A stretch of DNA of 64,000 bases from Candidatus Spongiisociaceae bacterium. Its GTDB lineage: Bacteria; Actinomycetota; Acidimicrobiia; Spongiisociales; Spongiisociaceae. The notes beneath the pieces were generated by a model. The model was not told the DNA's origin. It saw only the letters and a program-made list of their open reading frames with translations, and ran no database searches. The position numbers and the translations under genes were made by a program. The stretch covers positions 2,304,001-2,368,000 of the forward strand of contig OZ241841.1 of assembly GCA_965202665.1 (NCBI GenBank). The letters are read 5' to 3'. Below are positions 27,577-54,412 of this stretch, piece after piece (position 1 is the first letter of the stretch; each line of letters starts with the position of its first letter).

Positions 27577-27633
27577 CGCCCTTACTCTAGCCGCCCCCGC
27601 CGGGGGGGGGGGGGGGGGGGACGCCCGTATAGG

Positions 27634-35661: not shown

Positions 35662-36699
35662 TCAGGTGCCGGTGAGCAGAAGTTGTTGATTGTGTTCTTC
35701 GGTCTCAGCAGGTTCCGCGGGTTGGGGCGGGGCGGTGTTGGACACTGATGGTGAGGGGCTCAGCAGTGTTTTCAGTTCTTCGGGGGTTTGCGGGTTGGGC
35801 CAGGGTTGGGCTCCTTGTTCCCGTAGGGCGGTCAGTCCCGGACTGGGCAGGTCCCGCACATATACGGGGACCTGCTGGTCGGGATGCTTGTTTCTCTGCA
35901 GTTGGCTTTCGGCCCCCGCTTTGGTGCCGCCCTGCTCCGGGTGGGCGTCCACCACCAGGGCGGCGTCGGCCAGGTTGTAGATCAAAGCGTTGCGCCCCAT
36001 CGCCGTCCCGCGGCTAAACCCGGCCCCGGGATCGTAGGGCGAGACCATCAGCATCTGGTCGTTCACGATCCAGTCCCGCCGGTCGCGGGTCATTATTTCT
36101 TTTTCCAGTTTGGCCGCCAACACTCCGACTGTCCGCCCGCCCGCCTCCAAAGCCCCCGTCATCACCTCCCGGTCCGTCCCCCGCGCCCCGCCGGAAACCA
36201 CCGGGAGCGCGGCGCGGGCGGCCAGATCTCCCGTCCGCCGGGCGAAATCCAACGCCTCCTCGTCTGCCTCACGCGGCCCCACCACTGCCAGCCCGCTTTC
36301 GTTGAGAAGCGACCGGTCGCCGCACCCGTAGAGGATCGGGGGAGCGGAGCGGGGAAGGCGGTCCTGGAAATGGCGCGGGTATTCCTCGTCATAGGAACTT
36401 ATCACCCAGATGGCCCGCGTATGCCAATGGTCGACGGCCTGAGCCAAACGGCCGCCCCGCCCCAACAGGTCTTTGATGCGTTCCATACCGCCATCGCCCG
36501 ACGGGTAGTCGCCCAGGACCTCCTCCAGTCCCTCCAGTAGCAGGTCCGCCGGTTGGAATCCTTTCTCCCGCAAGTGCTCTTCCAGTTTCCGGTATTCCGG
36601 CAGACGCAGACGCTCGCTTGTTTCCCGATGTTTGCCCACATTGAGCGGCGCGGTCAGCAACAGGATGGCTTTAGTGTTGGGAAAAAGCGACCAGGTCAT
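35662..36699 (-). CDS. DprA/Smf-fold protein (RqlI-like)
   Basis: PPILYGCG, AVVGPR, VSGGARGTD, AMGRN..IY, GGT; ATGA overlap with helicase stop. Confidence 0.85.
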   Translation of the reverse strand: MTWSLFPNTKAILLLTAPLNVGKHRETSERLRLPEYRKLEEHLREKGFQPADLLLEGLEEVLGDYPSGDGGMERIKDLLGRGGRLAQAVDHWHTRAIWVISSYDEEYPRHFQDRLPRSAPPILYGCGDRSLLNESGLAVVGPREADEEALDFARRTGDLAARAALPVVSGGARGTDREVMTGALEAGGRTVGVLAAKLEKEIMTRDRRDWIVNDQMLMVSPYDPGAGFSRGTAMGRNALIYNLADAALVVDAHPEQGGTKAGAESQLQRNKHPDQQVPVYVRDLPSPGLTALREQGAQPWPNPQTPEELKTLLSPSPSVSNTAPPQPAEPAETEEHNQQLLLTGT

Positions 36700-38791: not shown

Positions 38792-39474
38792 GGCGGTAAA
38801 CCTTATTCGGGGGGTGTGACGGAAATGAGGATGGGAGCGACGGGGACGGGTGTTGGGGACAAATCGAACCGTATGTGTCCGCCACCCAACAAATCCACAT
38901 AGAACCTGTCCGGTAACTCCGCCCATCCAACAATCCACTCGCACGGCACGCCATCACCGTCCGGGTCAAACTTGGAGTTCCACTCAAACCCAGCCAGCGC
39001 CGCCCCCACCGTCGTCATCCTCCACACCTGCCGAGATGCACCCTGCCATTCCCGGCATCTGGCGTATTTTGTCTGCGCCTCATCCCAGCACAGCATCATA
39101 AATCCCGTAGATATCGTGCCTTCGGTGATTGTCACCCTTGCCGCTCGCCGGGTCGGTTCGTAGTCGCAATCCCAGATGTGTTGGCCGCCTGCCGACCACC
39201 GAAGCCGCGATTCTCGGCCAGCGACGGGTATCGCACTAACTGCCAGAATCATCAGGGCGCACAAGGCGGCAGCCAGGCGCCTCATATGTCTCCTGGAGCC
39301 GCGGCCCTCCTCCAGGAAGCGGATGGCCTCTTCTTGGCCGGGGCGGAACGCGGCGTTTGGGTCGTCGGCTCCGGCGCGGAGCCGTTGATGGGTGTGTTGG
39401 TTGTCGTATGTCATAGTGGGAAACCTTATCCGGGGGGTGTGACAGAAACGGGGATGGGGCCGTCAGGGGGCGGG
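38681..39474. repeat. Diverged ~170-bp direct repeat (38681-38850 and 39304-39474)
   Basis: Both copies carry a promoter plus MTYD...RAGADDPNAAFRP.QEE.IRFL.EG; offset 623 bp. Confidence 0.88.
38803..39285 (-). CDS. Secreted protein with excalibur-like Ca-binding motif
   Basis: AGGAG RBS before MRRLAAALCAL signal peptide; FDPDGDGVPCE matches DxDxDGxxCE. Confidence 0.65.
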   Translation of the reverse strand: MRRLAAALCALMILAVSAIPVAGRESRLRWSAGGQHIWDCDYEPTRRAARVTITEGTISTGFMMLCWDEAQTKYARCREWQGASRQVWRMTTVGAALAGFEWNSKFDPDGDGVPCEWIVGWAELPDRFYVDLLGGGHIRFDLSPTPVPVAPILISVTPPE

Positions 39475-40704
39475 ACCGGCGCGGGCGGGAGGCTGGCGCC
39501 GGGACGGGACGGGCGGCCCGGCGCGGGGGCGGGTCCGCCACTCGCCGCCGACTTTGGCCAACTCCAGGTTGCGTTCCTGCAACCTTCGGTGGTGGGCGCC
39601 GCACAGCGAAGCCAGGTTGTCGATGTCGGTTGCGCCCCCGGCGTGCCAGTCGAGCACATGATGCAGTTGGGTCTGGTGGGAGGGGGCGTCGCAGGGCAGC
39701 ACGCAACCCCGGTCGCGAATGGCCGCTACCAGTTTTTGCGAAGCGTTGGCCAGCCGACGGCTTCGTCCCAGCCACAGCGGGTTGCCCGACCGGTCGAATA
39801 TTGCCCCCGCTATGTGGGCGTCGGGGGACAGCAGGCGCAGGATGGAGGGCGGAACGGGCCCCGTATCCAAGATTTCGCATTTCCCGTCCGGGTTGGTTCC
39901 GTCGAACAGGCCCAGTTCGGCGGTGATGATCAGGCGGGTGGAGGCCTTGCCCCCCATCCCTTCCATAGGGCGGAGATGGTCGGCGTCCCGGCCGGTCAGC
40001 AGTTCGAACAAGGCATCGGCCCGGCGTTGGTCGCCGGTGCGGACATCGTCGGGCGGAACCTCGCCGCCGCCGTCGGCCCGGCGCAGGGCTTCGGCGCGGA
40101 GATCCAAGGCTTGCCGGACCTGTCCGAAGCGGATGGGGTCCAACTCGGCGTGCACCACGCCCATTTGTTTGGAGTGGTCCCAGAAGGCGTACGCTTTGCG
40201 CCGCGCCCGTTGCCGCTTCAACTGTTCTTCGCCGCGGTCCGGGGAGTTGGCGTTGGCCCATTGGCGGGCCCGTTTGCGGAAACGGTCCGGGTCGGCGGCC
40301 GCCGCGTCTTCCAGCAGGCCCCGGTCCCCGTCCACCCGGCGGGGGCCGCATTCCCCGGCGGCGGCGGCCAAGGCGGCGACGTGGTCCAAAGTGATCTCGC
40401 CCGCCTGCAATTTGGCGCGGGCGTTGGGCATTTCCTCCAACTTCTGCGCCACCTTGGTCATCTGCTTGGCGTCCCGCCGGGTTATCCGCAGGGCGTCCCG
40501 CAGTTCCTCCTCCGACCCGGTTGCGCCGTCTGCGGCCAGACGGGAGGCTATGGAGCATTCCAAGGCGGACAGTCCGGCTTTGAGCCGGCCCAGTTCCTCT
40601 CCCAAGCGGCGCACCTCCTCCAAAGTGAGGCGATGGCCGGCCTGTTCGGCCCAGGCGGGCAACCCTTCCCGGAAGGAACGGCATTGGCGAATAATTTCAT
40701 TCAT
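39463..40704 (-). CDS. DUF222/13E12-family HNH endonuclease
   Basis: QRRADAL, LWLGRSRRLA, RDRGC, HHVLDWHAGGATDIDNLASLCGAHH. Confidence 0.88.
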   Translation of the reverse strand: MNEIIRQCRSFREGLPAWAEQAGHRLTLEEVRRLGEELGRLKAGLSALECSIASRLAADGATGSEEELRDALRITRRDAKQMTKVAQKLEEMPNARAKLQAGEITLDHVAALAAAAGECGPRRVDGDRGLLEDAAAADPDRFRKRARQWANANSPDRGEEQLKRQRARRKAYAFWDHSKQMGVVHAELDPIRFGQVRQALDLRAEALRRADGGGEVPPDDVRTGDQRRADALFELLTGRDADHLRPMEGMGGKASTRLIITAELGLFDGTNPDGKCEILDTGPVPPSILRLLSPDAHIAGAIFDRSGNPLWLGRSRRLANASQKLVAAIRDRGCVLPCDAPSHQTQLHHVLDWHAGGATDIDNLASLCGAHHRRLQERNLELAKVGGEWRTRPRAGPPVPSRRQPPARAGPAP

Positions 40705-40711
40705 AACCCCC

Positions 40712-40733
40712 AACTTAGGAGGGGGGTGTGACA
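40712..40733 (-). promoter_or_regulatory. PafBC/RecA-NDp-like DNA-damage promoter (further copies at 39423-39444 and 38800-38821)
   Basis: TGTCAC-N10-TAAGTT, 7 nt before ATG; same geometry as TGTCGG-N10-TA-N3-T. Confidence 0.6.
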
Positions 40734-40827
40734 TTTTTTGGCGGGATGTCCCCCAACGGACAAAATCAGGCAAAAAACCTGAATTTTCTCGGCGTTCCCG
40801 GCCCGAACGGGGCGAACCGGCCGGGGT

Positions 40828-41820
40828 TTATCCGTCGGCGACGGCGCGCAGGGCGGGCAGCACCTTGGCTCCCAGCAGGTCGATCAGGCCTTCCTGGTCG
40901 ACGGCGGCCATCTGGATGGTTACCACATCGGCGTCGATGTCTTTCACCAGCGGTTCGTAGACGTCGATGATGCCGGCGGCGTCGGCGGTTCGGGCGTAGC
41001 GGCCCAGCACCTCCTCGCGGGGCAGGTCGTCGGCCCGTTCCCGCAGGGTCATCGGATCCACCGCCTCCAACCGGCCCGGGGCCCGCAGCCCCCGCCAGGA
41101 AAACAGCGCCCGCCAGGCTTCGTCATCGTCCCCGGCCAGGATCGCCCACCGGGAGGTGAGGACGATGGGGGCCGGACGGCCATGGTCGGCGGCCTCTTCC
41201 CGAACGGGGCCGATCACCCGCTCCACGGCCTCCGCCGGGTCTTTCACCGACACGATCACCCCGTCCGCTTTGCGCCCCGCCAGCCGGGCCGACTTGGGGC
41301 CGCCCGCCGCCATCAGAATCGGCACCCGGGACAGAGGGGGGGAATAAAGTTTGGCCCGGTCGGTCACGTAATATTCGCCCCGGTAGGTGAGTTTTTCCCC
41401 GTCCAGCATGCGGCGCATTATTTGCAGGGCCTCGTCCATCCGGGCCGCCCGCTCGGCGTATTTGGGGAAATGGTATCCGAGGGGGCCTTCGTTGATGTTC
41501 TCCCCGGTTCCCACTCCCAGGTTGAACCGCCCGCCGCTCAGCCGGTCCAAAGTGGCGGCCGCCTGGGCGACCAGGGCCGGATGGAACCTCCACAGGGGAG
41601 TGGTCACCCCGGTGGTGAACTCCACCCGCTCGGTGGCCTGCGCCATGGCGGCGATGGTGGCGTAGGCGAACCCGGAGGCGGAGGCGTCGTCCACCCAGGG
41701 ATGAAAATGCTCGGAGACCACCAGCATGTCGAACCCGGCCTGCTCGGCCCGCACCGCATGCTCCACCAGCTGCTCCGGATGCCACTGCTCATGGCCGCAG
41801 AAATAAGCGAATTTGGTCAT
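40828..41820 (-). CDS. F420-dependent LLM-class oxidoreductase (G6PDH-like family)
   Basis: HEQW, SEHFHPW, TGVTTP, GVGTGENINE. Confidence 0.9.
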   Translation of the reverse strand: MTKFAYFCGHEQWHPEQLVEHAVRAEQAGFDMLVVSEHFHPWVDDASASGFAYATIAAMAQATERVEFTTGVTTPLWRFHPALVAQAAATLDRLSGGRFNLGVGTGENINEGPLGYHFPKYAERAARMDEALQIMRRMLDGEKLTYRGEYYVTDRAKLYSPPLSRVPILMAAGGPKSARLAGRKADGVIVSVKDPAEAVERVIGPVREEAADHGRPAPIVLTSRWAILAGDDDEAWRALFSWRGLRAPGRLEAVDPMTLRERADDLPREEVLGRYARTADAAGIIDVYEPLVKDIDADVVTIQMAAVDQEGLIDLLGAKVLPALRAVADG

Positions 41821-41886
41821 AGGTCCTCCTAGGGGGCATAGTGGATTTGGCATGCCTGCCCCGACCAGTCTAATATGGCCCCCGCT

Positions 41887-43770
41887 ATGACCCAAAACCC
41901 CAAATGGAAGTTCGCCGAAAACCAGGATGGTGCCATAGAAGGCCCGAACCATCCCGGCATCGCCAATTTTACGGGCGACCGGGCGACCGCCATTATCAGG
42001 GAAGCCATTCAGAACTCGCTGGATGCTAGGGAGGGTGATCGCCCCGTCTCTGTTATTTTCGAGAGGAAAATGTTGGATAGGAGTATTTTAGCGGCTGATG
42101 ATTTGTTGGAGCACATTGAATGGTCTATTGAATCCCCTGCCAACGATGATGAAAACAGGCCGGATTTCAAGAAAGCCCAAAGTCTATTGGGGGGGGGGGG
42201 TAGAGAAGTTACATGTCTCTGTATAACGGACAGCAATACAACCGGGGCCGTTGATACAGAAGAGGACACATCGCCATGGAAGGCTCTTACCAAAGGTTCC
42301 GGGTTTCCCCGTAAGGCTTCCAAAAGTGCTACCGGATCTTTTGGCATAGGAAAATTTGCTTCGTTCACTTCAACTTATCTACGAACAGTACTCTATTCTA
42401 CTGCTTTCCAAAACAACGGCAGGCTGGAACACAGGTTTCAAGGAAAAACGATTCTCGTTTCTCATAAAGACGGCAGTGGAAATCCATTGCAAAGTATAGG
42501 ATACCTCGGTGATGGATTCGACCCGCTGAAAGATCAAGAAGTTCTGGCTGAAGTAAAGAGACTTGAACCAGGAACCTCTTTGTATATCCCCTATTATAGT
42601 TTTGGTAAAATGAGGCAGTGGTTGCAGGATAGCACTAGCATAGTTTTGGAGAACTTTTTTCATGCTATTATCCATGGCAACTTGCAAGTTCAATTCAGGG
42701 ACTCTGTTGAAGATGCTTTTCCAACTAGAACTATAGACAAAAAAACAAGTAATAAATATCAGCGGGAAATAACAGGGGATAGCACAACATACAGGTTAAT
42801 GCAGGTTTCTAAAAAGAAACCGCTAGCGAAAAAGACCTTCCAAGATGTAGGTGATATTTCTATCCGAATTACTATAAATCCAGAAACTAGATGGAGGGAG
42901 ATCGGATTAGTACGGGATGCGGGAATGTTAATTACATCAGACAGAAAGAATATGTTCCCCAGCCTCAAGCGAATTCCTGCTCACTGGTGTGGGTTTACGG
43001 CAATAATTGAATGTCAATCCAAAGGGAAGTCCCTTTTACGCCAGGCAGAATCTCCCCGTCATGATCATATCTCAGCAGATTATATTAGAGGTGCAGATGT
43101 ACGGGCTAGTACCGAAGAGAAGTTTAAAGAAATAGGTGATTGGTGTTTAGAAGAAATTCGAAAATTAGCAGAGCCGGATCTAGGAAGCGAGTCAGTTAAT
43201 GTTGATGAACTTGCTCAGTTGTTAGGTGTTGGGGGTGATACTACTCTAGAAGCAGGTCAGGAAGTGCCTGATGAAGACGGAGATCCGGTGGTATCTGAGC
43301 CAGAAAAAGTCTTGCGGTCTCCCAATCAATACAAGAAAACATCCGTAAAGAAAGCTATTGAAGATTTAGTGGAAAGCATTGTTGATGATGAGACGGCTGA
43401 TGATGCGGAAGAAGTAGAACGAACTGACAAAAAAATAGATAAAAAAGCGGACAAGAAGCGTCAAGTGAGAGCAGTTCCTCAGTCTTATATAAAAACACGA
43501 TTTAGAACAGGATCAAAACCAACCCACTCTGTGATTGTATCTTTCGATCGTCCCGAAGGCAATCCCTCCAAAATTGAGTTAAATGCCATGGGTGAAGATG
43601 GTATCAGATATCTTATAGGTGTCAGTGAGGCAGTGTATGACGACAAATCTCTGTCAGTCGATAATGACCTTATTACTCTACCTGATACCACCCAGGAGCG
43701 CCAAAGTATTGAAATTTTTACTCGCGACCCTGTTCAAGGTAAATCATTCGATTTGAGATTCATAAAATGA
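41887..43770 (+). CDS. GHKL-type ATPase, cassette 1 gene A
   Basis: REAIQNSLDA (N box), DSNTTG (G1), GSFGIGK (G2), GTSLYI; acidic linker; AT-rich. Confidence 0.8.
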   Translation: MTQNPKWKFAENQDGAIEGPNHPGIANFTGDRATAIIREAIQNSLDAREGDRPVSVIFERKMLDRSILAADDLLEHIEWSIESPANDDENRPDFKKAQSLLGGGGREVTCLCITDSNTTGAVDTEEDTSPWKALTKGSGFPRKASKSATGSFGIGKFASFTSTYLRTVLYSTAFQNNGRLEHRFQGKTILVSHKDGSGNPLQSIGYLGDGFDPLKDQEVLAEVKRLEPGTSLYIPYYSFGKMRQWLQDSTSIVLENFFHAIIHGNLQVQFRDSVEDAFPTRTIDKKTSNKYQREITGDSTTYRLMQVSKKKPLAKKTFQDVGDISIRITINPETRWREIGLVRDAGMLITSDRKNMFPSLKRIPAHWCGFTAIIECQSKGKSLLRQAESPRHDHISADYIRGADVRASTEEKFKEIGDWCLEEIRKLAEPDLGSESVNVDELAQLLGVGGDTTLEAGQEVPDEDGDPVVSEPEKVLRSPNQYKKTSVKKAIEDLVESIVDDETADDAEEVERTDKKIDKKADKKRQVRAVPQSYIKTRFRTGSKPTHSVIVSFDRPEGNPSKIELNAMGEDGIRYLIGVSEAVYDDKSLSVDNDLITLPDTTQERQSIEIFTRDPVQGKSFDLRFIK

Positions 43771-44672
43771 AGCACGATCCCAATCGCCATTTTCTGTATC
43801 CGGTGGCTCGGCCATTGTCCGATGACTATCCGGATAGCAATATTACCGCTGATGTAAAGGCAAGCCTTGTATCAGATAGTGTGCAGATTACGGTCACATA
43901 CCAAGTTGACGATGCTTCCATCCGTCAGCAAGTGTTGGATTCCAAGGCGCGTTGTGTCGCCATGTTGTACTGCACGGACACGCTATATCGTCGCTCCATT
44001 CGAAAGACAGTTGATGGTAATCCCCTTGAGATAACGGATATAATCCCTCTGAATAGTTTACGAAATCGAGTGCAAGTGCACCCGGTCATTGTGGCTGATT
44101 GTGATATTGAAACACTTCCGCTTCAGACAGCGCATTCAGAATACAGAGGAATGTCTTTTAGCGTTAAGACAGGGCAACCTTTGGCTTTTGATTCTCCGAT
44201 GTATTTCAACGTTAATCCATCTCAAATGAAATTACAGAGCATTTTTAATTTAGTTACCGATACGGATGCTAGCAGGGTGCAGGCTGACGAATTTGAGATT
44301 GAGATGGATGCTACTCAACGATATATAAATATTATTGCCGACGAGGATACTATGTCTTGGTTTCAAGAGCTACGTCGCAATAGGAATATTACTTTTCCTA
44401 GTATTTATATGAGTGCATTGGTTACTGTACTATCGTATTTTAGAGAAATAGATGAAGGCAGTGATGAAGATATGCTCGACAAGATTTCTGCTGATGGATG
44501 GTTTTGGTGTATACGTAGGAAATTAGAAGATCAAAATATTACTTTGTCTGATGGTTCTAGTAAGGAACAAGTATCTTTAATCAAGGCAGCACAAAGTTTA
44601 CTAACAGTGCATCGTAATTCCCGCCCCTTTAAGCGTTTGCTTTGGCAGCAAGGAGTAGAGAGCGATGATTGA
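43767..44672 (+). CDS. Hypothetical protein, cassette 1 gene B
   Basis: ATGA-coupled to gene A; YPVARPLSDDY N-terminus; long AT-rich ORF. Confidence 0.8.
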   Translation: MKHDPNRHFLYPVARPLSDDYPDSNITADVKASLVSDSVQITVTYQVDDASIRQQVLDSKARCVAMLYCTDTLYRRSIRKTVDGNPLEITDIIPLNSLRNRVQVHPVIVADCDIETLPLQTAHSEYRGMSFSVKTGQPLAFDSPMYFNVNPSQMKLQSIFNLVTDTDASRVQADEFEIEMDATQRYINIIADEDTMSWFQELRRNRNITFPSIYMSALVTVLSYFREIDEGSDEDMLDKISADGWFWCIRRKLEDQNITLSDGSSKEQVSLIKAAQSLLTVHRNSRPFKRLLWQQGVESDD

Positions 44673-45447
44673 AAACATCCCGTACATTAATGAGGTCGGC
44701 AATCAGATTTTGGAACGTCTTGTTCTGACTGATCCTAGTCTCTTTTTCGGAGGAAGGCATCTAAGAGACAAGCTGGAGGATTTGGCTGGTGACTTAGGTG
44801 AGTCTCCGTATTCTAACAAATCCATCAATCTTGAGACATCACTTGCACCGCTAAATCAGATTCGCGAGGATGGCCCAGGTACGGATGCGGATAATGCTCC
44901 GATACTTCGTCAGGCATTGTCCAGTGTGTCTCCTGCTGAGGCATCTGATGGCTTGCTATGGGCTTCCATCAACTGCTTTGCTTTGTCCCCCTATATTCCC
45001 GTTAGGTGGGGTACATCATCATTGAGGAGAGATGATCTGCAAAACACCGCTTTTGTAAAAAGGCACTGGCTTTGGCAGGGAACTGCAGGTAGAACCTGGA
45101 ATGCGTCTGCTCGGCTTTGGTGGCTGGCGGAATTGGCAACCCGCGCCAGCGAATATTCTAGAAATTCGGTTGAGACACTACTAGAAGCAATGGGAAACAA
45201 TGTGGGTTTATATCATCAACTGACCTCTCGTACGTTTCTGGCGGCAAATCCCCAGGTGGTGGCCGCGATTTATGATGTCGCTTTAGACGGAAGCCGACAT
45301 GTTTTTGAAAAAGCATACGCCAACCAGTTGATGAAGGCTTTGAATATGAGGGCGGGGAATATTAGTTTTGATGTTTTTGATTATGACGAGTTATATACGA
45401 TTGTTGAAAGTTGTTTGCCCCCAAAAGAACGGGGGGCCACCGACTAA
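44665..45447 (+). CDS. ARLWW-motif (DUF6339-like) protein, cassette 1 gene C
   Basis: Overlaps gene B; LWASIN...RW...NASARLWW motif; family name from recollection. Confidence 0.75.
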   Translation: MIENIPYINEVGNQILERLVLTDPSLFFGGRHLRDKLEDLAGDLGESPYSNKSINLETSLAPLNQIREDGPGTDADNAPILRQALSSVSPAEASDGLLWASINCFALSPYIPVRWGTSSLRRDDLQNTAFVKRHWLWQGTAGRTWNASARLWWLAELATRASEYSRNSVETLLEAMGNNVGLYHQLTSRTFLAANPQVVAAIYDVALDGSRHVFEKAYANQLMKALNMRAGNISFDVFDYDELYTIVESCLPPKERGATD

Positions 45448-46289
45448 GGTCGGCCGCCCCTCCTGCGTTGCGGGTCGTTAGTTTGGGCGGGGGGATACAG
45501 AGCACCGTTATGTGCCTGCTGGCCGAGCAGGGGGCGTTCGGGGTCAAGCCGGATGTGGCCCTCTTCGCCGACACCGGGTGGGAGCCGCAGGGGGTGTATG
45601 ACACGGTGGAATGGTTGCGGTCGCAGGTTTCTTTTCCGATAGAAACAATCAGCAACGGGCGAAGCCTGCGGGAAGATGTTCGCGATGGGGTGAACGCGCA
45701 AGGCCAACCCTGGTTGACCATCCCGGCGTTTCTGGCCGAACGCAACGGCGACCCGGCGGGCATCAACTGGCGGCAATGCACCAAAAACTACAAGTTGGAT
45801 CCGATCCGGACCGCGGTGCGAAGGATGCTCGGCGTCCGTCCCCGGCAGATGCTGTCCTCAGACACCAACGTGGAAATGTGGCTGGGGATTTCCACCGACG
45901 AGATTATGCGGGCCAAGCCCAACCGCGAATGGTGGATCAAGCACCGGTTCCCGCTGATTGACGATGTGCCCATGTCCCGTCGGGAATGTCAAGCCTGGTT
46001 TGAGGAAAGGTACCCGGACCGCACCCTGTCCCGAAGCGCCTGCGTGGGATGCCCGTTTCGCAGCACGGCCAGCTGGCTGGAAGTGCGGGAAAGCGACCCC
46101 GACCTGTTTGAGGAAGCGGTGCGGATGGACGCCCAACTGCGCTCATCCGGCCACAACGCCGCCAAGATGTTCCGCAAACGGGCCTTCCTCCACCACCGCC
46201 GAATACCCCTCGCCGAAGCCATCCAAGCAGACCAAGCGGAAGAAGAAGATCACTTCATAAACGAATGCGAAGGCCACTGCGCCCTGTAA
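45411..46289 (+). CDS. PAPS-reductase-like / adenine nucleotide alpha-hydrolase with Cys motifs
   Basis: SLGGGIQST PP-loop-like, FADTGWE, RQCTKNYK, GISTDE, SACVGCPF, ECEGHC; true start may be TTG 45468. Confidence 0.8.
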   Translation: MFAPKRTGGHRLRSAAPPALRVVSLGGGIQSTVMCLLAEQGAFGVKPDVALFADTGWEPQGVYDTVEWLRSQVSFPIETISNGRSLREDVRDGVNAQGQPWLTIPAFLAERNGDPAGINWRQCTKNYKLDPIRTAVRRMLGVRPRQMLSSDTNVEMWLGISTDEIMRAKPNREWWIKHRFPLIDDVPMSRRECQAWFEERYPDRTLSRSACVGCPFRSTASWLEVRESDPDLFEEAVRMDAQLRSSGHNAAKMFRKRAFLHHRRIPLAEAIQADQAEEEDHFINECEGHCAL

Positions 46290-46311
46290 GGATAAAACCT
46301 TCTTGGTGTTC

Positions 46312-47172
46312 CTATGATTCGATACGCCCTGTGGAGCACATTTGTATAAGCTTTTCCATCGGATAGGTGGAGAAGTCCACCACCGGTGCCAACCTTCCCA
46401 GCCATCCTAGCCGATCTTCGACATTTTCTTGCCTGCTACGGTTGTTGTTGGCCACAGGCTTTTCCCTATCAAATGATAGAAGTGCCGCTACTAGCACCTG
46501 GGGGCTATTTAGGACAGCCAAGCGTCTCACCAACACACCCACAACTCCTCTCCAAACCGCTGAACCGTGTAATATCTTGTGTGCCTCATCAGAGGTGAGA
46601 TGTCCATCGGAAGCCTCTGCTACCCGGTCAGCCATGTGCGGTCTCCACCAAGCCTGTGCTATCGGGCAGTTAAAAACCGATACTGATCCACGTACATGAG
46701 AAAGGCCGCCTATTCGCCAGCCGATGAAGCGGGCTAAACTGTCATCATCGTCCATATTGTTTCCCGCTGTAGTCGTTATCCAGTCAGAGGGGACATATCC
46801 CTTCTCCCACCACAAGAGGGAAAGTGCCGTCCAAAGGGCAGGCCGGGAGGCTGCCGTTGGCACCACCGTTGGGGTCAGGGTTTGGTAAATCTCCCTTTCC
46901 AGTTCTACCGACGCGGCTCCCGTGAACTCTTTTGCCGACAGATTCTGGGGCAAAAGTGGAGGAGTGCCGCCTTCCAGGCCGTCTAGGCCAGAATTGACCC
47001 CCAGTTGGTCGAGCAGAATATCCAGTGCCTCCCCCGACCGGGCCGCTTCTGCCAGCAGTTGCGCCTTCTCCGTGGTCGCCCCTTCTCTAGTACTTCCTTT
47101 TGGCGTCGTCGCCATCCACCATTTTTGGCACGCCTCGTCAAAAACCCCGGTCGCTCGCAAGTAATCGGACAT
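46312..47172 (-). CDS. Hypothetical protein, cassette 2 gene C (remote similarity to ARLWW proteins)
   Basis: TGATG-coupled to upstream gene; ALWTALS and NCPIAQAWWR motifs. Confidence 0.7.
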   Translation of the reverse strand: MSDYLRATGVFDEACQKWWMATTPKGSTREGATTEKAQLLAEAARSGEALDILLDQLGVNSGLDGLEGGTPPLLPQNLSAKEFTGAASVELEREIYQTLTPTVVPTAASRPALWTALSLLWWEKGYVPSDWITTTAGNNMDDDDSLARFIGWRIGGLSHVRGSVSVFNCPIAQAWWRPHMADRVAEASDGHLTSDEAHKILHGSAVWRGVVGVLVRRLAVLNSPQVLVAALLSFDREKPVANNNRSRQENVEDRLGWLGRLAPVVDFSTYPMEKLIQMCSTGRIES

Positions 47173-48002
47173 CACTCCTCCATCCCCTCCGGCAGAAGCA
47201 TGAAAGCTTCCAAGCAGGTGGCAGCCTGCGCTGGGTCGTAATCTTCGTCCATCCAAGTAGGGACGTTTGCCTTTTGCAGGTGGGCGGCCATTTCCCCCAA
47301 CACTTGTGAGCCAGCAGGGTCGTCGCTTTTCTTAAGGCGAGCCAATGCCCCCACTAGGGCGGCGATCATGATGCCGCTTCGCCTTTCCCTTTTTACGCTC
47401 TGCAAAGTTGCCTGAGTCATGAAAACCTTGAAGTGGTAATAGGGGTCCGGGTCGGCGACTCGGATTTCCCCATTCCTTGTCATTTGCTTATCTACTACGA
47501 ATTCCAATATGGAGGCAACCGCCTCCTCCAGCGCAAACACTTCCCCTCGGGCCACCACCCGTCCTGGGGGGATGGTAAGCGAAGAAGCCCCATCTTGCCA
47601 CACAAAGCTCAACATTTCCTTTGATAAGATTATCTGCCCATGGGCGCACAGTTGCGTGATGAGGAAGGGGCGCGCCGTGCAATGGGCCGGGTCCCACTTC
47701 ACGGAGTACTCCCAAATACTCCTTTCAGCATCCGTACCTTCTTCCTCCAAACTATGAGTTACCGTCAGGTCGTCAAGTCGGTAAGTCGCGTATTCGGAGT
47801 AAAGGGTATGGGGGGATCGTATTTCGGAGACCCACGCCCCATTGTCCCAGACGGCTCTCGTGAAAGGGCCGACATCGGGGCCGCTCAGAATATTCACAAC
47901 CCGCGCTTCGCTTTCACCTGTTCTCTCGAAGGTGTTGCTGTAGGAAACACCGGGGAAGTCGTAACCCAAGCCGTCGGCTCGTAACATCGGACGGTGGATC
48001 AT
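47172..48002 (-). CDS. Hypothetical protein, cassette 2 gene B
   Basis: ATGA-coupled to ATPase; RPMLRADGLGYDF start and HTLYS echo gene B of cassette 1. Confidence 0.72.
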   Translation of the reverse strand: MIHRPMLRADGLGYDFPGVSYSNTFERTGESEARVVNILSGPDVGPFTRAVWDNGAWVSEIRSPHTLYSEYATYRLDDLTVTHSLEEEGTDAERSIWEYSVKWDPAHCTARPFLITQLCAHGQIILSKEMLSFVWQDGASSLTIPPGRVVARGEVFALEEAVASILEFVVDKQMTRNGEIRVADPDPYYHFKVFMTQATLQSVKRERRSGIMIAALVGALARLKKSDDPAGSQVLGEMAAHLQKANVPTWMDEDYDPAQAATCLEAFMLLPEGMEE

Positions 48003-49903
48003 GGCCGCCTCTTTACGATGTCAAGGGCCAGCGGCCCGCGTCCGCGCTCGACGGGAATAGTCATTTCTATCTGGAATCTATGCAAGTCGGTGGGAACCAG
48101 CACCTCGAACGGGCCCATCTTCTTCAAGCCCGGGGAGCCGGGGGATATGCGGCAAAATTCCGGCCGCGGTGAGGAGTCGCAGGTTTCATCTCCGCCGGTG
48201 GCGCGAATTACCCGCACCCCCAACACCTCCTCTTTGTGCTGGCCGAGTTCCACTTGTATCGCTCTAATGTTGCCGTCCCGGCTATCGCCGAGCACTATCT
48301 CGCCGAAGGCGAAAGGCACCGAGATGGACTTCCCCGGCCGGGCGGTTGTATCTTCCTCCGTTGGTATGATGGGCCGCGGATGGGGGCCCGGACCGGGTCC
48401 GGGACCGGGTTCGGGCTCCGGTTCACCTGGTTCCAACCACGGGGTCTCCCCTTCGCCTTCGCCGGGAGTCCAGACCGGGGGACGCGGGGGGAGGGGACGC
48501 GGCCGCGGCCGCTCCGTTCCTTCTCCGTACGCGGCGAAACCGGTTGGCCGCCAGGAATCCCCGGTTACGCTCTCCGCCTCCGCTAGCAGAATATTCAGTA
48601 TCTCGTCCAGCATCCCCTTGAGTTCTTCTTTGTCCTCTTTAGGGAGGTTGGGGAGGTTGATGTCGTAATGCTCCGCCCCTTCGGAACGGCGTACCAGTTC
48701 GGAGAACCGCCGCCCATTTTCCGGGTCGGCCAGCACTACCGCGTCGAAACGTTCACGGTCGGCAAAATGGCCGGTAGGGTAATGGCTGTTGGTGATCCAC
48801 ATCCCCTCTCGGAAAAAGTTGACGCGGGTGCGGCCCCTATCCGTGTCATCCAGCTTTCGAAACAGGATGGTCGCCGTTTCCGAGGACAGTTGTTTTCCCT
48901 GATTGAGAGTGCGCCACGCCCGGTGCGCCATCCCCTCGGGGAACCGCCATCGCTCGGAGCGAACAATGTATCCGTCCTTTGACAAAGCCTTCCCCACCGA
49001 GTTCGGCGAGTCAAGCGTAATGCTTCTCTTCTCGTCTTTTACTTCCACCGCTATACGACCGTCGCAGATGGCGGGTGCGAAGTGGGCGGCGGCGGTGCGG
49101 GCGATGTAACGAAGCGCTTCGCCTGTTTCGGGGGGCTCTCCGAAGTGGTTGAAGCCCAGTATGGCCACCACCGTTCCGGTCTTGGCGGTTCCGGTCTCGG
49201 TTATGCGGTCAATATCCGGTTTGACAAGGGCGGGCGACTGGGAGACGTACTGGAAGGGAGAATCGAACATGCCGATTTTGTTTGGGTTGTCGCCTATGGC
49301 CAACGTTCCTTTGTGACTGCGGGTCTTTTGCTCCCCCCGCGGCAGGTGGGCGGCCAGCAGGCATCGCCCGGAGACAATCGGACCTTCGGGGCCGCGGGAT
49401 CCGTATATGACGTAGCGCAGGTCGGAGGCCCCGAAGGCGGTCAGGTGCCCCAACCCGACCGAGCCAGCCCCATGATCGGTTTTGGTGGTGTTTCCCTCCG
49501 ACAGCAGGCGGCTCATCGTATCGTCCGTCAGCCCTTGGCCGTCGTCTCGGCAAACCAACACCCACATCTCTCCGTCTTTGTCCCCCAGCACATCCTCGAT
49601 TCGGTTGGCGACCGTATTGTCGGTTTCGGAAAACCTGCCTGCCTCCTTGCGGTTGCGGACCACATCCTCAAAGGCCCGCTTGTATCCGCTCAAATCAGGG
49701 ATTTGCGATATCGGGACGCGGCGGATGGAGATGGAAACATCCACCCGCTGTCCGTTCTCGCGGGCGTCTAAGCAGTTTTGGAGCAACTCGCGAATTACCG
49801 GCTCGGCGTAGCCGCGCAAGGCGCGGTCGGCGTCGGCGGAGGCAAAGCCGGACTGGTCGGTGGGGTCTGGTGGGAAAATCAGCCGGGGGGTATGGGCGGT
49901 CAT
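47999..49903 (-). CDS. GHKL-type ATPase, cassette 2 gene A
   Basis: RELLQNCLDA, DDGQGL, GSVGLGH, GTVVAI; Pro/Glu/Gly-rich linker; AAGGA RBS. Confidence 0.8.
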   Translation of the reverse strand: MTAHTPRLIFPPDPTDQSGFASADADRALRGYAEPVIRELLQNCLDARENGQRVDVSISIRRVPISQIPDLSGYKRAFEDVVRNRKEAGRFSETDNTVANRIEDVLGDKDGEMWVLVCRDDGQGLTDDTMSRLLSEGNTTKTDHGAGSVGLGHLTAFGASDLRYVIYGSRGPEGPIVSGRCLLAAHLPRGEQKTRSHKGTLAIGDNPNKIGMFDSPFQYVSQSPALVKPDIDRITETGTAKTGTVVAILGFNHFGEPPETGEALRYIARTAAAHFAPAICDGRIAVEVKDEKRSITLDSPNSVGKALSKDGYIVRSERWRFPEGMAHRAWRTLNQGKQLSSETATILFRKLDDTDRGRTRVNFFREGMWITNSHYPTGHFADRERFDAVVLADPENGRRFSELVRRSEGAEHYDINLPNLPKEDKEELKGMLDEILNILLAEAESVTGDSWRPTGFAAYGEGTERPRPRPLPPRPPVWTPGEGEGETPWLEPGEPEPEPGPGPGPGPHPRPIIPTEEDTTARPGKSISVPFAFGEIVLGDSRDGNIRAIQVELGQHKEEVLGVRVIRATGGDETCDSSPRPEFCRISPGSPGLKKMGPFEVLVPTDLHRFQIEMTIPVERGRGPLALDIVKRRP

Positions 49904-50058
49904 GTCCTTCCTTGTTGCGGAGGGCACGCAGTATACTTCCGCAGATTGTTCGGGGGAAAATCGGCGCATGGTTTGGCGCGTCGCCGGGTGTTGTGTTATA
50001 TTTGCGGGACTCCGGATGGCGGTTGCCCTGCCGGAGCGAGGCCGAAGGATTAGCTGAT

Positions 50059-50844
50059 ATGTTCAACAATGTTCTCAAACTCAACCAGAGCGGATACCAT
50101 ATTTTGGAGGAGTTAGCTGAGATTGTACCCTATATTTTCATAGAAGGGGGTACTAGGCTACTTAAGAAGAGTTTAGATTTTTTGGCCGCCAAACGGAACG
50201 AGCGGCCTTTTGATCCCCGCGACATCAAATTGAAGGTTCCGCTTGATACGTTGAATACCCAAATCACCGAGGAAGGACCCGGCACGGATGCCGATTTTGT
50301 TCCTCTGATACGCCAGGCGACAGCCGGTATTGCGATGGACCAAATCGATCAAAAGATGTTTTGGACTTCTATAAACTGCTTGGTTTTGTCACCCTATATC
50401 GCCGAACGATGGTCCACTAGTCATTTGCTCAAAAAAGAACCGAACAGGTTCGTCCAAAAACATTGGTTCTGGATGGGCACAGAAAGCAGATGTTGGAACG
50501 CATCCGCCCGATTGTGGTGGTTAGGGGAGATGTCGCTCCGGGCATCAGAGTTTTCCATTCACTCCACCGACACGCTGTTGAGAGTTATGGCGGGCAATGT
50601 AGGGTTGTATCATCAACTAATGTCACGTTCCTATGCAGTTAACGATCCGGTTTTGACAGCGGCTATTTACGACACAGCCTTGGCGGGAAATAAGCAGTTG
50701 TTCCAAACCGATAACGCCAACGAACTCTTTAAAAATCTCAAAGCCAAGGCGGGTACTTTCAACGGTTTAGACTATTATGAACTATGTCAGATAGTGGAAA
50801 ATAGCTTACCCGATACTTCTATGAGAACTGAGGATCGGCAGTGA
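50059..50844 (+). CDS. ARLWW-motif protein paralogue 2
   Basis: EGPGTDAD, FWTSINC, WNASARLWW, AAIYD shared with 44665-45447. Confidence 0.8.
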   Translation: MFNNVLKLNQSGYHILEELAEIVPYIFIEGGTRLLKKSLDFLAAKRNERPFDPRDIKLKVPLDTLNTQITEEGPGTDADFVPLIRQATAGIAMDQIDQKMFWTSINCLVLSPYIAERWSTSHLLKKEPNRFVQKHWFWMGTESRCWNASARLWWLGEMSLRASEFSIHSTDTLLRVMAGNVGLYHQLMSRSYAVNDPVLTAAIYDTALAGNKQLFQTDNANELFKNLKAKAGTFNGLDYYELCQIVENSLPDTSMRTEDRQ

Positions 50845-51602
50845 GTTTGAAAAACATTCCTCGCCTAAACGATAACGGATATCGCATTTTAGATGAAATG
50901 GCTGATAGCGCGCCTCATATTTTCACGTCGGGAGATACCGCTCAACTGATAGAAGAGTTGGAACAGAGGGCCCAACAACAGGGCGTACCGCCATATGTTG
51001 ATTCAAGGATCAACTTGAAGGTTTCTCTTGACCCCTTGAATCGGGTGGATAGGAAAGGGCCTTCCACCGATGCCCGCAACGTACCGATATTACGCCGAGC
51101 GGTTGCCGGAATTTCATCTGAACAGGCTGATCAGGGCTTATTTTGGACTTCCATAAGCTGTTTCCTGTTGTCTCCGTATATTTCACAACGCTGGAGTACC
51201 AAAAAACCTACTAGATTCGTCAAAAGGCATTTGCTGTGGATTGGGAAAAAGGGCAGGATTTCGAACTCTGCCGCTCGGCTGTGGTGGTTGGGAGAGATGG
51301 CCCTTCGCTCCTCCGAGTTTTCCATACATTCTTCTCGTACTTTACTCACTGTTATGGCAAATAATACAGGACTGTATCACGCTATTATGGATCGTAAATT
51401 TGCTTCTAACCCGGTTTTGGTAGCTGCCATATACGACACGGCTTTGGCTGGAAAAACCTATCTTCTCTACAAGGAACATGCTAACGACCTCTGTATAAAA
51501 CTTCGTGCCAAGGCTGACACCTATAATGTTTTAGACTATTATGAACTATACCAAATAGTGGAAAACTGCTTGCCCCTCAAAGCACCCCGATCACCTCGGT
51601 AA
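50841..51602 (+). CDS. ARLWW-motif protein paralogue 3
   Basis: KGPSTDA, FWTSISC, NSAARLWW, AAIYD; GTGA overlap. Confidence 0.8.
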   Translation: MSLKNIPRLNDNGYRILDEMADSAPHIFTSGDTAQLIEELEQRAQQQGVPPYVDSRINLKVSLDPLNRVDRKGPSTDARNVPILRRAVAGISSEQADQGLFWTSISCFLLSPYISQRWSTKKPTRFVKRHLLWIGKKGRISNSAARLWWLGEMALRSSEFSIHSSRTLLTVMANNTGLYHAIMDRKFASNPVLVAAIYDTALAGKTYLLYKEHANDLCIKLRAKADTYNVLDYYELYQIVENCLPLKAPRSPR

Positions 51603-51631
51603 GTTGCCCGTACAGCGGTTAAGGTTAAGCA

Positions 51632-52411
51632 ATGAATAGCACCGTTTTAGGGCTGAATAGCGATGGTCTCCGTTTGGTGGAGAAACTGGCTTACACTGCT
51701 CCCCATCTTTTTTTCGAAGCCGATATGATACAATTCAAAAACGAACTGGATGAGTTAGCCGCCCAGGGGGAAGTGTCTCCCTATGACTCGCAAAATATCA
51801 AGTTGGTTGCTCCGATTGACTCTCTGAATCGACTTAAACGGAAAGGTCCGGGGTCTGATTTCCACTACGCGCCGATTATTCACCGGGCGTTAGCCGACAA
51901 CCCACCGGAATATATGAACCAAGGTTGGTTTTGGTCTTCTATCAACAGCTTCGTCTTGTCCTCCTACGTCTCAATGCGTTGGGACAGTGGGCTTAGAAGA
52001 TCAAACCCCGGCAAGTTTGTGAAGAGGCACTGGTTGTGGATTGGTGCCCATGGCAGACTTTGGAACGGTTCGGCGCGGCTGTGGTGGTTGGCGGAGTACG
52101 CTCATAGGGCATCTGAATTTTCCGAACATTCGGCTGAAACCCTTATCAACGCTATGGCCGACAACAGGGAGTTGTATACTCGAATCATGTCGCGGAGTTT
52201 TGCGATCAGAAATCCAACTGTGGTGGCCGCTATTTATGATGTAGTCTTGGCAGACAATAGCTATTTGTATAAAAGAAGTAATATTATACAGTTACTAAAG
52301 TCGTTAAAGATAAAGGCTGATACTTTCGATATTTTAGACTATGAAGAACTGCATCAAATTGTGATCAACAGCCTGCCGTCTCGATATGAAACTATGAGGA
52401 TGTTTCCGTAA
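51632..52411 (+). CDS. ARLWW-motif protein paralogue 4
   Basis: KGPGSD, FWSSINS, WNGSARLWW, AAIYD. Confidence 0.8.
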   Translation: MNSTVLGLNSDGLRLVEKLAYTAPHLFFEADMIQFKNELDELAAQGEVSPYDSQNIKLVAPIDSLNRLKRKGPGSDFHYAPIIHRALADNPPEYMNQGWFWSSINSFVLSSYVSMRWDSGLRRSNPGKFVKRHWLWIGAHGRLWNGSARLWWLAEYAHRASEFSEHSAETLINAMADNRELYTRIMSRSFAIRNPTVVAAIYDVVLADNSYLYKRSNIIQLLKSLKIKADTFDILDYEELHQIVINSLPSRYETMRMFP

Positions 52412-52571
52412 CGGCGGTGGTTTCGGCGACGGTGGAGGTGACGGGGACGGGTTCGCCGGCGGGCGGCCCTCGGTCGGGCCAGAGGATGAACAACGCCAGC
52501 ATCACGGCCAAGGCCAAGGCGGCCAGCAACTGGGGCCAGCCGCTTACGGGTTGGGGAGGGGCGTTGGTCAT
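52392..52571 (-). CDS. Small single-TM membrane protein
   Basis: One hydrophobic helix; TAGAAT 7 nt upstream of ATG; 3' end overlaps the island's last gene. Confidence 0.5.
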   Translation of the reverse strand: MTNAPPQPVSGWPQLLAALALAVMLALFILWPDRGPPAGEPVPVTSTVAETTAVTETSS

Positions 52572-52611
52572 CTCCGCCATTCTAGCGACAGCACCCCTGC
52601 TTGCCCGGAAT

Positions 52612-53298
52612 CTACCAGACCGGCCAGGGGATGGGCGGGCGGTCCTCCGGCGGCGGGGGATGAACCGGGTTGTCCAGCAGGCCCTCCACCCGTCCGGTCA
52701 AAGCGTCCGCCTCCGGTTTGCCCAGCAACCGCATCACTTCCGCATACAACCACCCCCGCAAAGCCTCCCGCAACCGCCCCGCCGCCCCGACCATTTCCTC
52801 TGGCAAAGGGCGGCCCGCGAAGTTCCACAACACGGTGCGCAATTTGGCTTCGGAATGAAAAGTCACCCCATGGTCGATGCACCATAATCGACCCCCGGCG
52901 TCCTTCAGGAAATGCCCCGCTTTGCGGTCGGCGTTGTTTACCAAAACATCCAAAACCGCCACCGGCCACAGCGACGGATCCGCGTCATTAATAGGCCCGG
53001 CGGCGTCGAATTCAGGGTCGGCTTCCACGAAACGCTGGGCGGAACCCGGCCCGAAAGGCCCTTCGGCGAATAGGGTTTCCGGCACCACTTCCAGCCCGGC
53101 CGCCTGCGACGTCTGAAAGGTGAGCACTTCCCGGGCGGCCAAAGTCCCCGGGGTGAAATCCCACAGCGGGCGTTCCCCCCGTTCCGGTTTGTAAACCACC
53201 ATGTCCCCTTCTTCGGTGCGGGCCAGCAAAGTGGCGTTGGAGGCGTTGCGGAACCTGCCGATGATTTCGGTTACGACCGGCGCGGGGCGGATTTTCAC
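52612..53298 (-). CDS. SCO1664-family kinase-like protein
   Basis: ASNATLL, YKPERGERPLWDF, NNADRKAGH, IDHGVTF; GTGA overlap. Confidence 0.88.
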   Translation of the reverse strand: MKIRPAPVVTEIIGRFRNASNATLLARTEEGDMVVYKPERGERPLWDFTPGTLAAREVLTFQTSQAAGLEVVPETLFAEGPFGPGSAQRFVEADPEFDAAGPINDADPSLWPVAVLDVLVNNADRKAGHFLKDAGGRLWCIDHGVTFHSEAKLRTVLWNFAGRPLPEEMVGAAGRLREALRGWLYAEVMRLLGKPEADALTGRVEGLLDNPVHPPPPEDRPPIPWPVW

Positions 53299-53810
53299 CG
53301 GGCCGGCCGGTGGCCGTTGCCGGAGGGGCAGTCGTGGCCGTCGGGATTTTCCGGCAACAGGCACATGGGGCACAGCGGCCGCCCGGCGTTGACCGATTCC
53401 AACGCCATAATGGCCATCGCCCGCAACTGCTCGGGAGTGGTCATAAACAGCACCTCCTGCCCTTCTTCGGATCCGCGCAGCAGTATCTGAAAGAAATGGT
53501 CGGAGCTGATCCGCATGGCGATGGACTCCACCGGGAAAAAATGGTCGTGTTCGGACGGCCCGGTCATTTCCCCGGCGGTGGACACCATCCCTTCCACCGC
53601 CCCTTCGTCCACCGTTCGTTCCATGGCGCCCAAAATTTCGATGCTCTGCTGGGCGAGGGCCGCCGCCTGCTCCTTTTCGCATTTGAACCACACCGGGTCG
53701 CCCCCCATTTCGATCATCAGGTAGAAGGTGCGTTTGCCGGGCACGCCCACCGCCCCCACTCGGAACCAGTCGACCAGGCCGTAGTCGCGGGGAGTGAATT
53801 CGTGCGTCAA
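53295..53810 (-). CDS. DUF3090-family protein
   Basis: GAVGVPGKRTFYL, EKEQ, AGRPLCPMC...GHDCPSGNGH. Confidence 0.85.
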   Translation of the reverse strand: MTHEFTPRDYGLVDWFRVGAVGVPGKRTFYLMIEMGGDPVWFKCEKEQAAALAQQSIEILGAMERTVDEGAVEGMVSTAGEMTGPSEHDHFFPVESIAMRISSDHFFQILLRGSEEGQEVLFMTTPEQLRAMAIMALESVNAGRPLCPMCLLPENPDGHDCPSGNGHRPAR

Positions 53811-54412
53811 TCGATTCCCCCCGTTCCCATTCGGTTGACGGAGGCCACCGCCGGCGGGCCCGGTCCCAGGATAATTTCCGACACCGACGCCGGGGAGACC
53901 ACCAGCCGTTGAAACAGGTCCAGCGGCTGGCCCAGGAAATGGGCGAGGACAAGTTTGATCACATCCGCATGGCTTACCGCCGCCGCCGTCCCCCGGCCCG
54001 CTCCGGCGGCGATCCGTTCCACCGCCGCCACCGCCCGCACCTGCGCTTCGGCGAACGATTCCCCGCCCGGGAAGCGGGCCCGGGAGGGGGTGTTCCGCAC
54101 CACCTCCCACAGTTTGGTGCGGCGCAGGGATTTGAGGGTGCGCCCCGTCCAAGACCCGAAATCCATTTCCACCAAGCCTTCTTCGATGACCGGTTCCAGC
54201 CGGTGGCGGGCGGCCACGATGCGGGCCGTTTCCAAGGTTCGTTCGATAGGGGAGGTGAACACGGCTTTGACGGCCCGGTCGGCCAGCAGGTCGGCGGTGC
54301 GGCGCGCGGCCGCCTCCCCGGCCTCCCCCAGGGAAACCCCGGGGGCCCGTCCGGTCAGCCGGACGCCGGTCTCGGGGGTGGGGGCGTGTCGGATGAGGAG
54401 TATGCGGGCCAT
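53807..54412 (-). CDS. Histidine phosphatase (MSMEG_4193-like phosphomutase)
   Basis: LIRHA, SPIERTLET, SHADVIK; conserved cluster with DUF3090/SCO1664. Confidence 0.88.
   Translation of the reverse strand: MARILLIRHAPTPETGVRLTGRAPGVSLGEAGEAAARRTADLLADRAVKAVFTSPIERTLETARIVAARHRLEPVIEEGLVEMDFGSWTGRTLKSLRRTKLWEVVRNTPSRARFPGGESFAEAQVRAVAAVERIAAGAGRGTAAAVSHADVIKLVLAHFLGQPLDLFQRLVVSPASVSEIILGPGPPAVASVNRMGTGGID

Follow-up and report, generated by a model that had tools for sequence, protein, structure and literature searches.

What might be the function of a gene island that sets two GHKL ATPase cassettes, an enzyme resembling 3′-phosphoadenosine 5′-phosphosulfate (PAPS) reductase and a family of ARLWW-motif proteins between two core genes? 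The island lies at positions 41887 to 52411 of the window, i.e., the whole stretch of 64,000 nucleotides analyzed here from contig OZ241841.1 of a Candidatus Spongiisociaceae bacterium. An earlier note had proposed an undescribed defence or DNA-modification island that could not be matched to a named system. The latter claim falls: according to profile comparisons, the three-gene core (A-B-C) is already catalogued as PDC-M33, a predicted candidate for phage defence, and the ARLWW proteins correspond to Pfam DUF6339. The proposed interpretation is partly supported. The chances are about even that the island constitutes a nuclease-free self/non-self system resembling bacteriophage exclusion (BREX), in which the PAPS-reductase-like enzyme (P) marks DNA while A-B-C reads the mark and blocks. 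It is likely that the island marks the DNA of its own cell, probably with sulfur, and likely that it stops phage DNA lacking the mark, no nuclease being recognisable. The genes, with one internal tract, are as follows (window coordinates).

41887..43770, plus strand: A1, GHKL ATPase (PDC-M33A) of 627 amino acids with an ExxxH motif after the ATPase domain
42189..42200, plus strand: G12 tract in A1 (near codons 101-104) that keeps the reading frame here; likely a slippage switch
43767..44672, plus strand: B1, PDC-M33B; predicted Ig-like N-terminal domain and helical C-terminal part; predicted docking site of C
44665..45447, plus strand: C1, PDC-M33C / DUF6339; mostly helical ARLWW protein
45411..46289, plus strand: P1, PAPS-reductase-like PP-loop enzyme of phage type, in which five cysteines are invariant; likely marks DNA
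46312..47172, minus strand: C2, diverged C homologue; its 3′ part differs in other populations
47172..48002, minus strand: B2, diverged B homologue
47999..49903, minus strand: A2, type 2 GHKL ATPase with the ExxxH motif and without a long G tract
50059..50844, plus strand: Ca, extra DUF6339 paralogue of cassette-1 type
50841..51602, plus strand: Cb, extra DUF6339 paralogue of cassette-1 type
51632..52411, plus strand: Cc, extra DUF6339 paralogue of cassette-1 type

The identity of the core follows from a scan against the profile models of PADLOC, in which the adjacent, co-oriented genes of cassette 1 match PDC-M33A, PDC-M33B and PDC-M33C in order (E-values of 3.7e-74, 4.2e-35 and 2.5e-18). By its name, PDC-M33 is assigned to the PDC set, whose members were predicted by embedding and included in PADLOC so that they can be studied later (Payne et al., bioRxiv 10.1101/2024.01.29.577857). 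Against the Pfam model of DUF6339 (PF19866; gathering cut-off 23.2 bits), C1 reaches 79.9 bits (E 2.5e-22), and Ca, Cb and Cc reach 42.7, 48.4 and 51.1 bits, respectively; C2 gives no match to this model. Literature searches returned no paper on either PDC-M33 or DUF6339. While PDC-M33 usually neighbours a C5 methylase, here P occupies that slot; the locus differs further in a second clade that escapes the B and C models and in the three extra C genes that follow.

The A proteins carry clear GHKL hallmarks. In the alignment, E39, N43, D46, G150/G153/G155, E388 and H392 of A1 are invariant, and among 87 full-length A proteins the N-box pattern is present in 83 and the G-box in 86. An ExxxH motif after the ATPase domain, located within a fixed residue window in 82/87 of these proteins and invariant in two alignments, is the described hallmark of paraMORC2 (Iyer et al., PMC2292703). 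The likeness extends to the GHKL motifs and to Dcm and Vsr neighbours; compared by description, paraMORC2 differs in the superfamily II helicase and nuclease partners stressed in that source, none of which is found here. A genome scan with the single A1 sequence confirmed nothing, whereas an alignment query gave 361 confirmed loci; in viral contigs, 12 pattern matches to A were obtained, none of them confirmed. Sequence searches of A, B and C against solved structures yielded nothing usable. In the suggested fold search of B and C, the B model returns generic Ig-like matches only (best Z 7.5, rmsd 2.7, 99 aligned residues, the C-terminal part barely covered), and the C model (pLDDT 94.5) has no Foldseek match at E 0.001 in the PDB and viral libraries (best Z 4.8). 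Neither of these models demonstrates a new fold. In a protein atlas, the neighbours of B are unnamed clusters, and the named matches of C score below 0.9.

The survey of A-B-C neighbourhoods advised in the earlier note comprised 80 loci from the genome scan (the best 80 of the 361 confirmed), 20 regions of relatives, one own locus and the window; removal of three duplicates and two overlapping regions left 97 loci, 90 of which are complete (seven are devoid of A, B or C). Partner genes were counted within 3 kb of a cassette, and nine members of the methylase cluster were checked by Pfam. A-B-C order is kept across many phyla, as the idea of a common core had required. A C5 methylase accompanies 44 complete loci and a PAPS-like enzyme 40, with both in one and neither in five, so that one or the other partner is found in 85/90. 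Moreover, 12 open reading frames (ORFs) of 535-553 amino acids fuse C to P (one checked by Pfam). The exclusive swap with C5 methylases and the C-P fusions bear out the proposed functional link to a modification-type enzyme. Two of the 40 PAPS-like partners (L082 and L116) are canonical SspD proteins within sspBCD operons, and these loci were therefore rejected as carriers of the phage-type P. In several Paenibacillaceae loci (L077, L083, L100, L109, L068), two C5 methylases flank A-B-C, often together with an HhH-GPD glycosylase-like gene.

In a quick tree of 94 B proteins, the P-linked cassettes form three groups, and the P label needs five changes, three of them forced by starred branches; the swap therefore probably goes back to few events, spread by transfer among Acidimicrobiia and Chloroflexota, rather than to 40 independent ones. 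The methylase-to-PAPS swap in A-B-C loci was found in no paper, and under the terms tried the available text of PMC12839542 and of 10.64898/2026.09.30.754977 does not mention this system.

A comparable replacement is known from BREX type 4, where the PAPS-domain protein BrxP replaces the methylase (PglX of type 1) and makes phosphorothioate (PMC12914056). The island resembles that system in having an ATPase-centred core with a PAPS-domain enzyme in place of a methylase, and differs in that the ATPase is of the GHKL and not the P-loop kind and that P is phage-type (phrog_424); none of the ten proteins matches BrxC, PglZ, BrxL or any other Brx model in PADLOC. With Ssp and Dnd it shares a PP-loop, cysteine-rich enzyme next to an ATPase, and the PP-loop and conserved cysteines of the phosphorothioate writers DndC, SspD and BrxP are kept in P. 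PADLOC finds no SspB, SspC or Dnd protein (DndD and DndE included) among the ten; lack of SspB/SspC and a weak SspD match (46.7 bits) separate the island from Ssp, and lack of DndD/DndE separates it from Dnd, the genome having separate sspABCD and dndABCD operons. CxC ABC-ATPase/DndE (Pbe) systems likewise combine one ATPase core with either phosphorothioate genes or cytosine methylases, although their ATPase is unrelated and they have an HKD nuclease-helicase (PMC10853773). By analogy, the locus may work like BREX type 4 or Ssp, but it is a member of neither.

P1, an enzyme of iron-sulfur type, matches phrog_424 (E 2e-45). Its PP-loop residues G11 and S14 are near-invariant, and C106, C194, C197, C269 and C273 are invariant. 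Among solved structures, P1 comes closest to a chain named PptA (E 4e-6, or 0.005 when a deeper alignment is used), the function of which was not found in the literature, including searches combined with phosphorothioation and phage. A role as the sulfate-assimilation enzyme CysH was rejected because of the context and because P1 matches solved PAPS reductases weakly (E 0.2-0.3). The family is widespread in viruses, with approximately 1100 viral stretches matching its patterns. PHROGs places the phage 'PAPS reductase' genes among auxiliary metabolic genes, and the role of phage PAPS-reductase-type genes has been called open (10.1101/2024.08.14.607894).

According to the proposed mechanism, P would write a sulfur mark, most likely phosphorothioate, on host DNA, possibly by adenylating the DNA and then inserting sulfur from a host cysteine desulfurase. 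The genome contains such desulfurases, supplied by its own sspABCD and dndABCD operons. Elsewhere in the genome, sspABCD stands with pbeA/pbeC at L215:5736-19046, and dndABCD with pbeA/pbeC at L216:8426-19128. A might form a GHKL clamp carrying the B-C unit on DNA, and the A-B-C complex, driven by ATP, would turn against phage DNA that lacks the mark. C5 methylases act alone and need no such machine, for which reason A-B-C is placed on the reading or effector side; as no nuclease gene is present, it may act by binding or nicking.

The opposite assignment, in which A-B-C is the targeting machine of the writer (cf. SspBC and DndDE) and the island an orphan, phase-variable epigenetic system lacking an effector, with any reader located elsewhere, is considered unlikely. 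It would account for the C-P fusions, for the lack of a nuclease in the island, and for a P that is small and conserved next to a variable A-B-C, as expected of a specificity module; a G tract in A would then switch the mark. However, 44 loci have A-B-C beside C5 methylases, textbook enzymes that need no such machine, and in L082 (L082:4683-16084) A-B-C stands between sspBCD and sspE, next to a writer that is complete without it. In L116, sspBCD is located directly upstream of A-B-C. Known phosphorothioate writers do need an ATPase partner (PMC12914056), which speaks for the writer-only assignment.

The fusion loci bear on the chemistry of the mark. In L102, which encodes a C-P fusion, A-B-C::P is directly followed by SspE, a protein that relies on host phosphorothioate (PMC9646914), although neither SspC nor DndC was found in this genome; a DndB-family gene is located near the fusion locus L103. 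These neighbours argue against a variant of the marking system with the same logic and another product, in which P makes a thiolated base (as TtcA or ThiI do) or a stable adenylate instead of a backbone phosphorothioate. PP-loop iron-sulfur enzymes are known to thiolate RNA bases as well (PMC12914056), P swaps with a base-modifying C5 methylase, and an SspB- or DndE-like nickase is not recognisable here; nonetheless, apart from the SspE of L102, the best solved-structure match of P, the PptA chain (E 4e-6), itself of a function not found in the literature, counts against the variant, which appears rather improbable.

Several observations weigh against the marking-and-reading proposal as a whole. 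Defence by PDC-M33 is a prediction, and so is any mark made by the enzyme family of P. On the SspD model, P1 scores 46.7 bits, compared with 358.5 bits for the genome's own SspD. All of the best 80 viral P homologues lack A-B-C and stand near polymerase (51/80), helicase (40/80) or DNA methyltransferase (23/80) genes; therefore P may not need A-B-C. The SspE case of L102 comes from one metagenome-assembled genome of unknown completeness, and every one of the SspE, Pbe and DndB neighbours comes from the fusion clade, outside the clade of the window, in which the scanned neighbours gave almost no defence matches. The PbeA/PbeC neighbours (L098 and L112) are non-specific, and the L098 genome has SspC elsewhere; Pbe systems pair with cytosine methylases too (PMC10853773). 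Finally, the loci form a biased, related sample.

Between conserved flanks, the cassette changes fast. G001, of the same genus, and G013, of the same family, have these flanks too, and same-site orthologues of P are 90% (G001) and 84% (G013) identical, with 94% for the LLM oxidoreductase of the left flank in G001; the corresponding values of A, B and C are 51, 44 and 57% in G001 and 46, 47 and 57% in G013. At the DNA level, an identity of 0.7-0.9 gives way to 0.5-0.6 early in A and is regained towards the end of C. Such divergence fits allele exchange or strong diversifying selection, and rapid change of A-B-C is as expected if it is driven by conflict. The same pattern, together with a strain-variable C2 and the presence of PsyrTA and an SMC-like ATPase 3-9 kb upstream, would also suit a system in which A-B-C detects a phage protein, or DNA modified by a phage, and thereupon arrests growth, the C proteins being sensors or decoys and the modifiers passengers. 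This appears improbable: passengers would not be so regular or exclusive (a modifier in 85/90 loci, both in one), nor would they be fused to C.

The G12 tract in A1 likely acts as a slippage switch, judging from the distribution of such tracts. Across the genome, G/C runs number 865 of length 7, 96 of 8, one of 9, none of 10 and 75 of at least 11, the last compared with approximately 0.15 expected by extrapolation; 23/75 of the long runs fit a TTGAC...TAG promoter-spacer pattern. Runs of at least 9 in the A region are present in 11/40 P-type, 0/44 methylase-type and 0/10 partnerless cassettes. Among the P-type cassettes, they occur in six of nine with a split A and in five of 31 with an intact A, two of these five at the gene edge. 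Tracts matching that of A1 in homologues are G10-G21 or C10, and several of these A genes are split, frameshifts being frequent among homologues at this place; eight A homologues, picked for short coverage, start just before the matching glycine run. Among the assembled contigs compared, those of two public runs end inside the G12 tract. Single on/off states, though not the tracts, could stem from homopolymer errors of long-read assemblies. In the marking-and-reading proposal, slippage would turn cassette 1 on and off. A G19 run is found at window position 27602, and a G11 tract falls, by coordinates, inside the sspB ORF of the genome's ssp operon.

The role of C as a subunit of an A-B-C machine, as had been supposed, is favoured by structure prediction. 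The advised complex modelling was run with three chains (B1, P1 and C1) and custom alignments; C scores 0.76 with the best control at 0.00, in a set-up that differs from the calibration, where the mark was reached by 116/157 solved and 2/215 mismatched pairs. At least 86% of the contacts are common to the runs, and pLDDT of the partner is at least 85. The interface listed is that of B with C and includes W153; replacement of B lowers the score to 0.00. Thus C is predicted to dock on the Ig-like domain of B. No confident C-P contact is listed in the three-chain model, which is uninformative on C-P binding.

The extra paralogues are 46, 48 and 43% identical to C1, compared with 17% for C2. Ca, Cb and Cc form one clade (99/99) with the single extra C of G001; the clade shares a two-residue deletion and keeps W99, Y110, R114, W115, H134, N146, R150, W153 and R189. 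Where the clade has fixed interface residues, 3/28 cells of the extra C proteins differ compared with 38/242 elsewhere, but overall identity to C1 at the interface is 28-46%. Docking of the extra C proteins on B1 is plausible on the basis of the model, and they might give B1 alternative partners. Entire additional C genes beyond the cassette are present in 2/87 loci with C1 hits; the expansion is therefore local and no general feature. The C-terminal half of C was also considered as a generally swappable domain; since orphan 3′ halves occur in one of 18 loci with C2 hits (G001) and the two halves are similarly identical across families, this was rejected and kept as a lead.

Cassette 2 is a diverged counterpart of cassette 1, as had been noticed. 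Only A2 matches a PDC-M33 model (E 2e-9), B2 and C2 giving none. Profile-profile comparisons relate A2 to A1 (probability 99.85%, 389 columns), B2 to B1 (99.4%, E 2e-21) and C2 to C1 (96.1%, E 3e-9), so that by these comparisons each gene of cassette 2 is a deeply diverged homologue of its counterpart in cassette 1. Type 1 and type 2 cassettes stand together in five loci (the window, L028, L030, L102 and L090). Otherwise, type 2 cassettes have a longer PAPS-like gene (P3) upstream, in 5/10 genome loci and in 5/7 metagenome loci, the remaining two of which start near a contig edge. Five type 2 cassettes have no P3, and four of these adjoin a P-bearing type 1 cassette, which suggests a mark common to both types; cassette 2, having no P of its own, might use P1 or a P3 elsewhere in the genome. 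Such a P3-A-B-C locus of type 2 is the third locus of the genome (L001:9179-14038, G000:C1 ~361-366 kb); its A gene is split at a G12 tract, and its G001 orthologue is split at G11.

Since the same site in G001 reads A-B-C-P-C′ without cassette 2, the closest relative of which is elsewhere in G001, an insertion of cassette 2 between P1 and the extra C genes is most likely. The X4 population has 335 other letters in place of the 3′ part of C2, and in X3 and X5 this part is too diverged to align. In G001 (L042:7941-8972), two degenerate tandem copies of the C2 3′ half are present, each from the conserved GGL-HV-G motif behind a stop.

An accidental origin has to be weighed here as well, i.e., an insertion hotspot where decaying cargo piled up by chance and P is a stray gene from a phage or from sulfate assimilation. 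The split A of the third locus would agree with it, as would the failure to find an integrase or terminal repeats. Against this, all ten ORFs are open and coupled, the extra C genes retain the invariant residues, and the pairing of type 1 with type 2 recurs in L028, L030, L102 and L090. A mere pile-up is thus very improbable.

The description of the locus given in the earlier note is confirmed. All ten ORFs are there, with the order and strands described, between an F420-dependent LLM oxidoreductase gene (40828-41952, minus strand) and an SCO1664 gene. The three extra ARLWW paralogues do lie opposite cassette 2, on the plus strand; they are of cassette-1 type and share the strand of cassette 1. 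Overlap of stops and starts is confirmed from the sequence (A1/B1 ATGA; B1/C1 8 nucleotides; C1/P1 37 nucleotides; A2/B2 ATGA; B2/C2 TGATG; Ca/Cb GTGA), likely starts being at 49903 for A2, 47172 for C2 and 50059 for Ca. Most genes are AT-richer than the genome (GC content 0.64), namely A1, B1, C1, Ca, Cb and Cc (0.42-0.47) as well as B2 and C2 (0.55-0.56); P1 and A2 stand at 0.62. In agreement with the absence of recognisable motifs reported before, none of the ten proteins matches a methylase, nuclease or integrase family in Pfam, NCBIfam and PADLOC scans. No terminal repeats were found around cassette 2, and promoter and terminator counts are at chance level. One public run, probably the source of the window, holds positions 40000-54000 in a single contig with zero differences, and contigs of two other public runs bridge the two cassettes. 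Several public runs holding part of the stretch are labelled sponge metagenome; among the runs listed, none that contains it is an RNA run.

Other defence-type genes are located upstream of the island. Positions 35662-38987 (minus strand) encode a PsyrA (DprA-like) and PsyrT (RecQ-like) defence pair, where PsyrT looks frameshifted, its N-terminal Walker A part being in another frame (ORF 38549-38944). At 32814-35261 (plus strand), a low-GC gene encodes an SMC-like ABC ATPase of 815 amino acids with weak LmuB/Mad3 matches. The region of 38693-39489 and 39463-40773 is notable for a unit of 130-180 nucleotides matching the psyrT start, of which several copies exist in G001; an Excalibur-domain ORF and a DUF222-HNH gene adjoin it.

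What the present analysis adds to the catalogued candidate is a second clade, the layout with twin cassettes, a model of C docking on B and the rapid divergence of A-B-C between conserved flanks. A more far-reaching claim is put forward tentatively, being doubtful in its entirety: A-B-C-P could represent a new phosphorothioation and defence pathway, the first with a GHKL ATPase and a phage-derived single-domain sulfur enzyme, with an exchangeable B-C specificity unit, two ATPase cores and up to five C proteins on one mark, a G-tract switch and recombinational swapping of C. The four-gene cassette spans 4.4 kb and is testable in a laboratory strain, while a test in the native host would be confounded by its own sspABCD and dndABCD operons. 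If the marking-and-reading proposal is true, it would provide a function for the PADLOC candidate PDC-M33 and for DUF6339, add to dnd, ssp, tdp and brx a way of marking DNA with sulfur that is based on a GHKL ATPase, and give the phage 'PAPS reductase' genes a testable role. It would also mean that an uncultured, probably sponge-associated actinobacterium keeps a defence system under G-tract phase variation.

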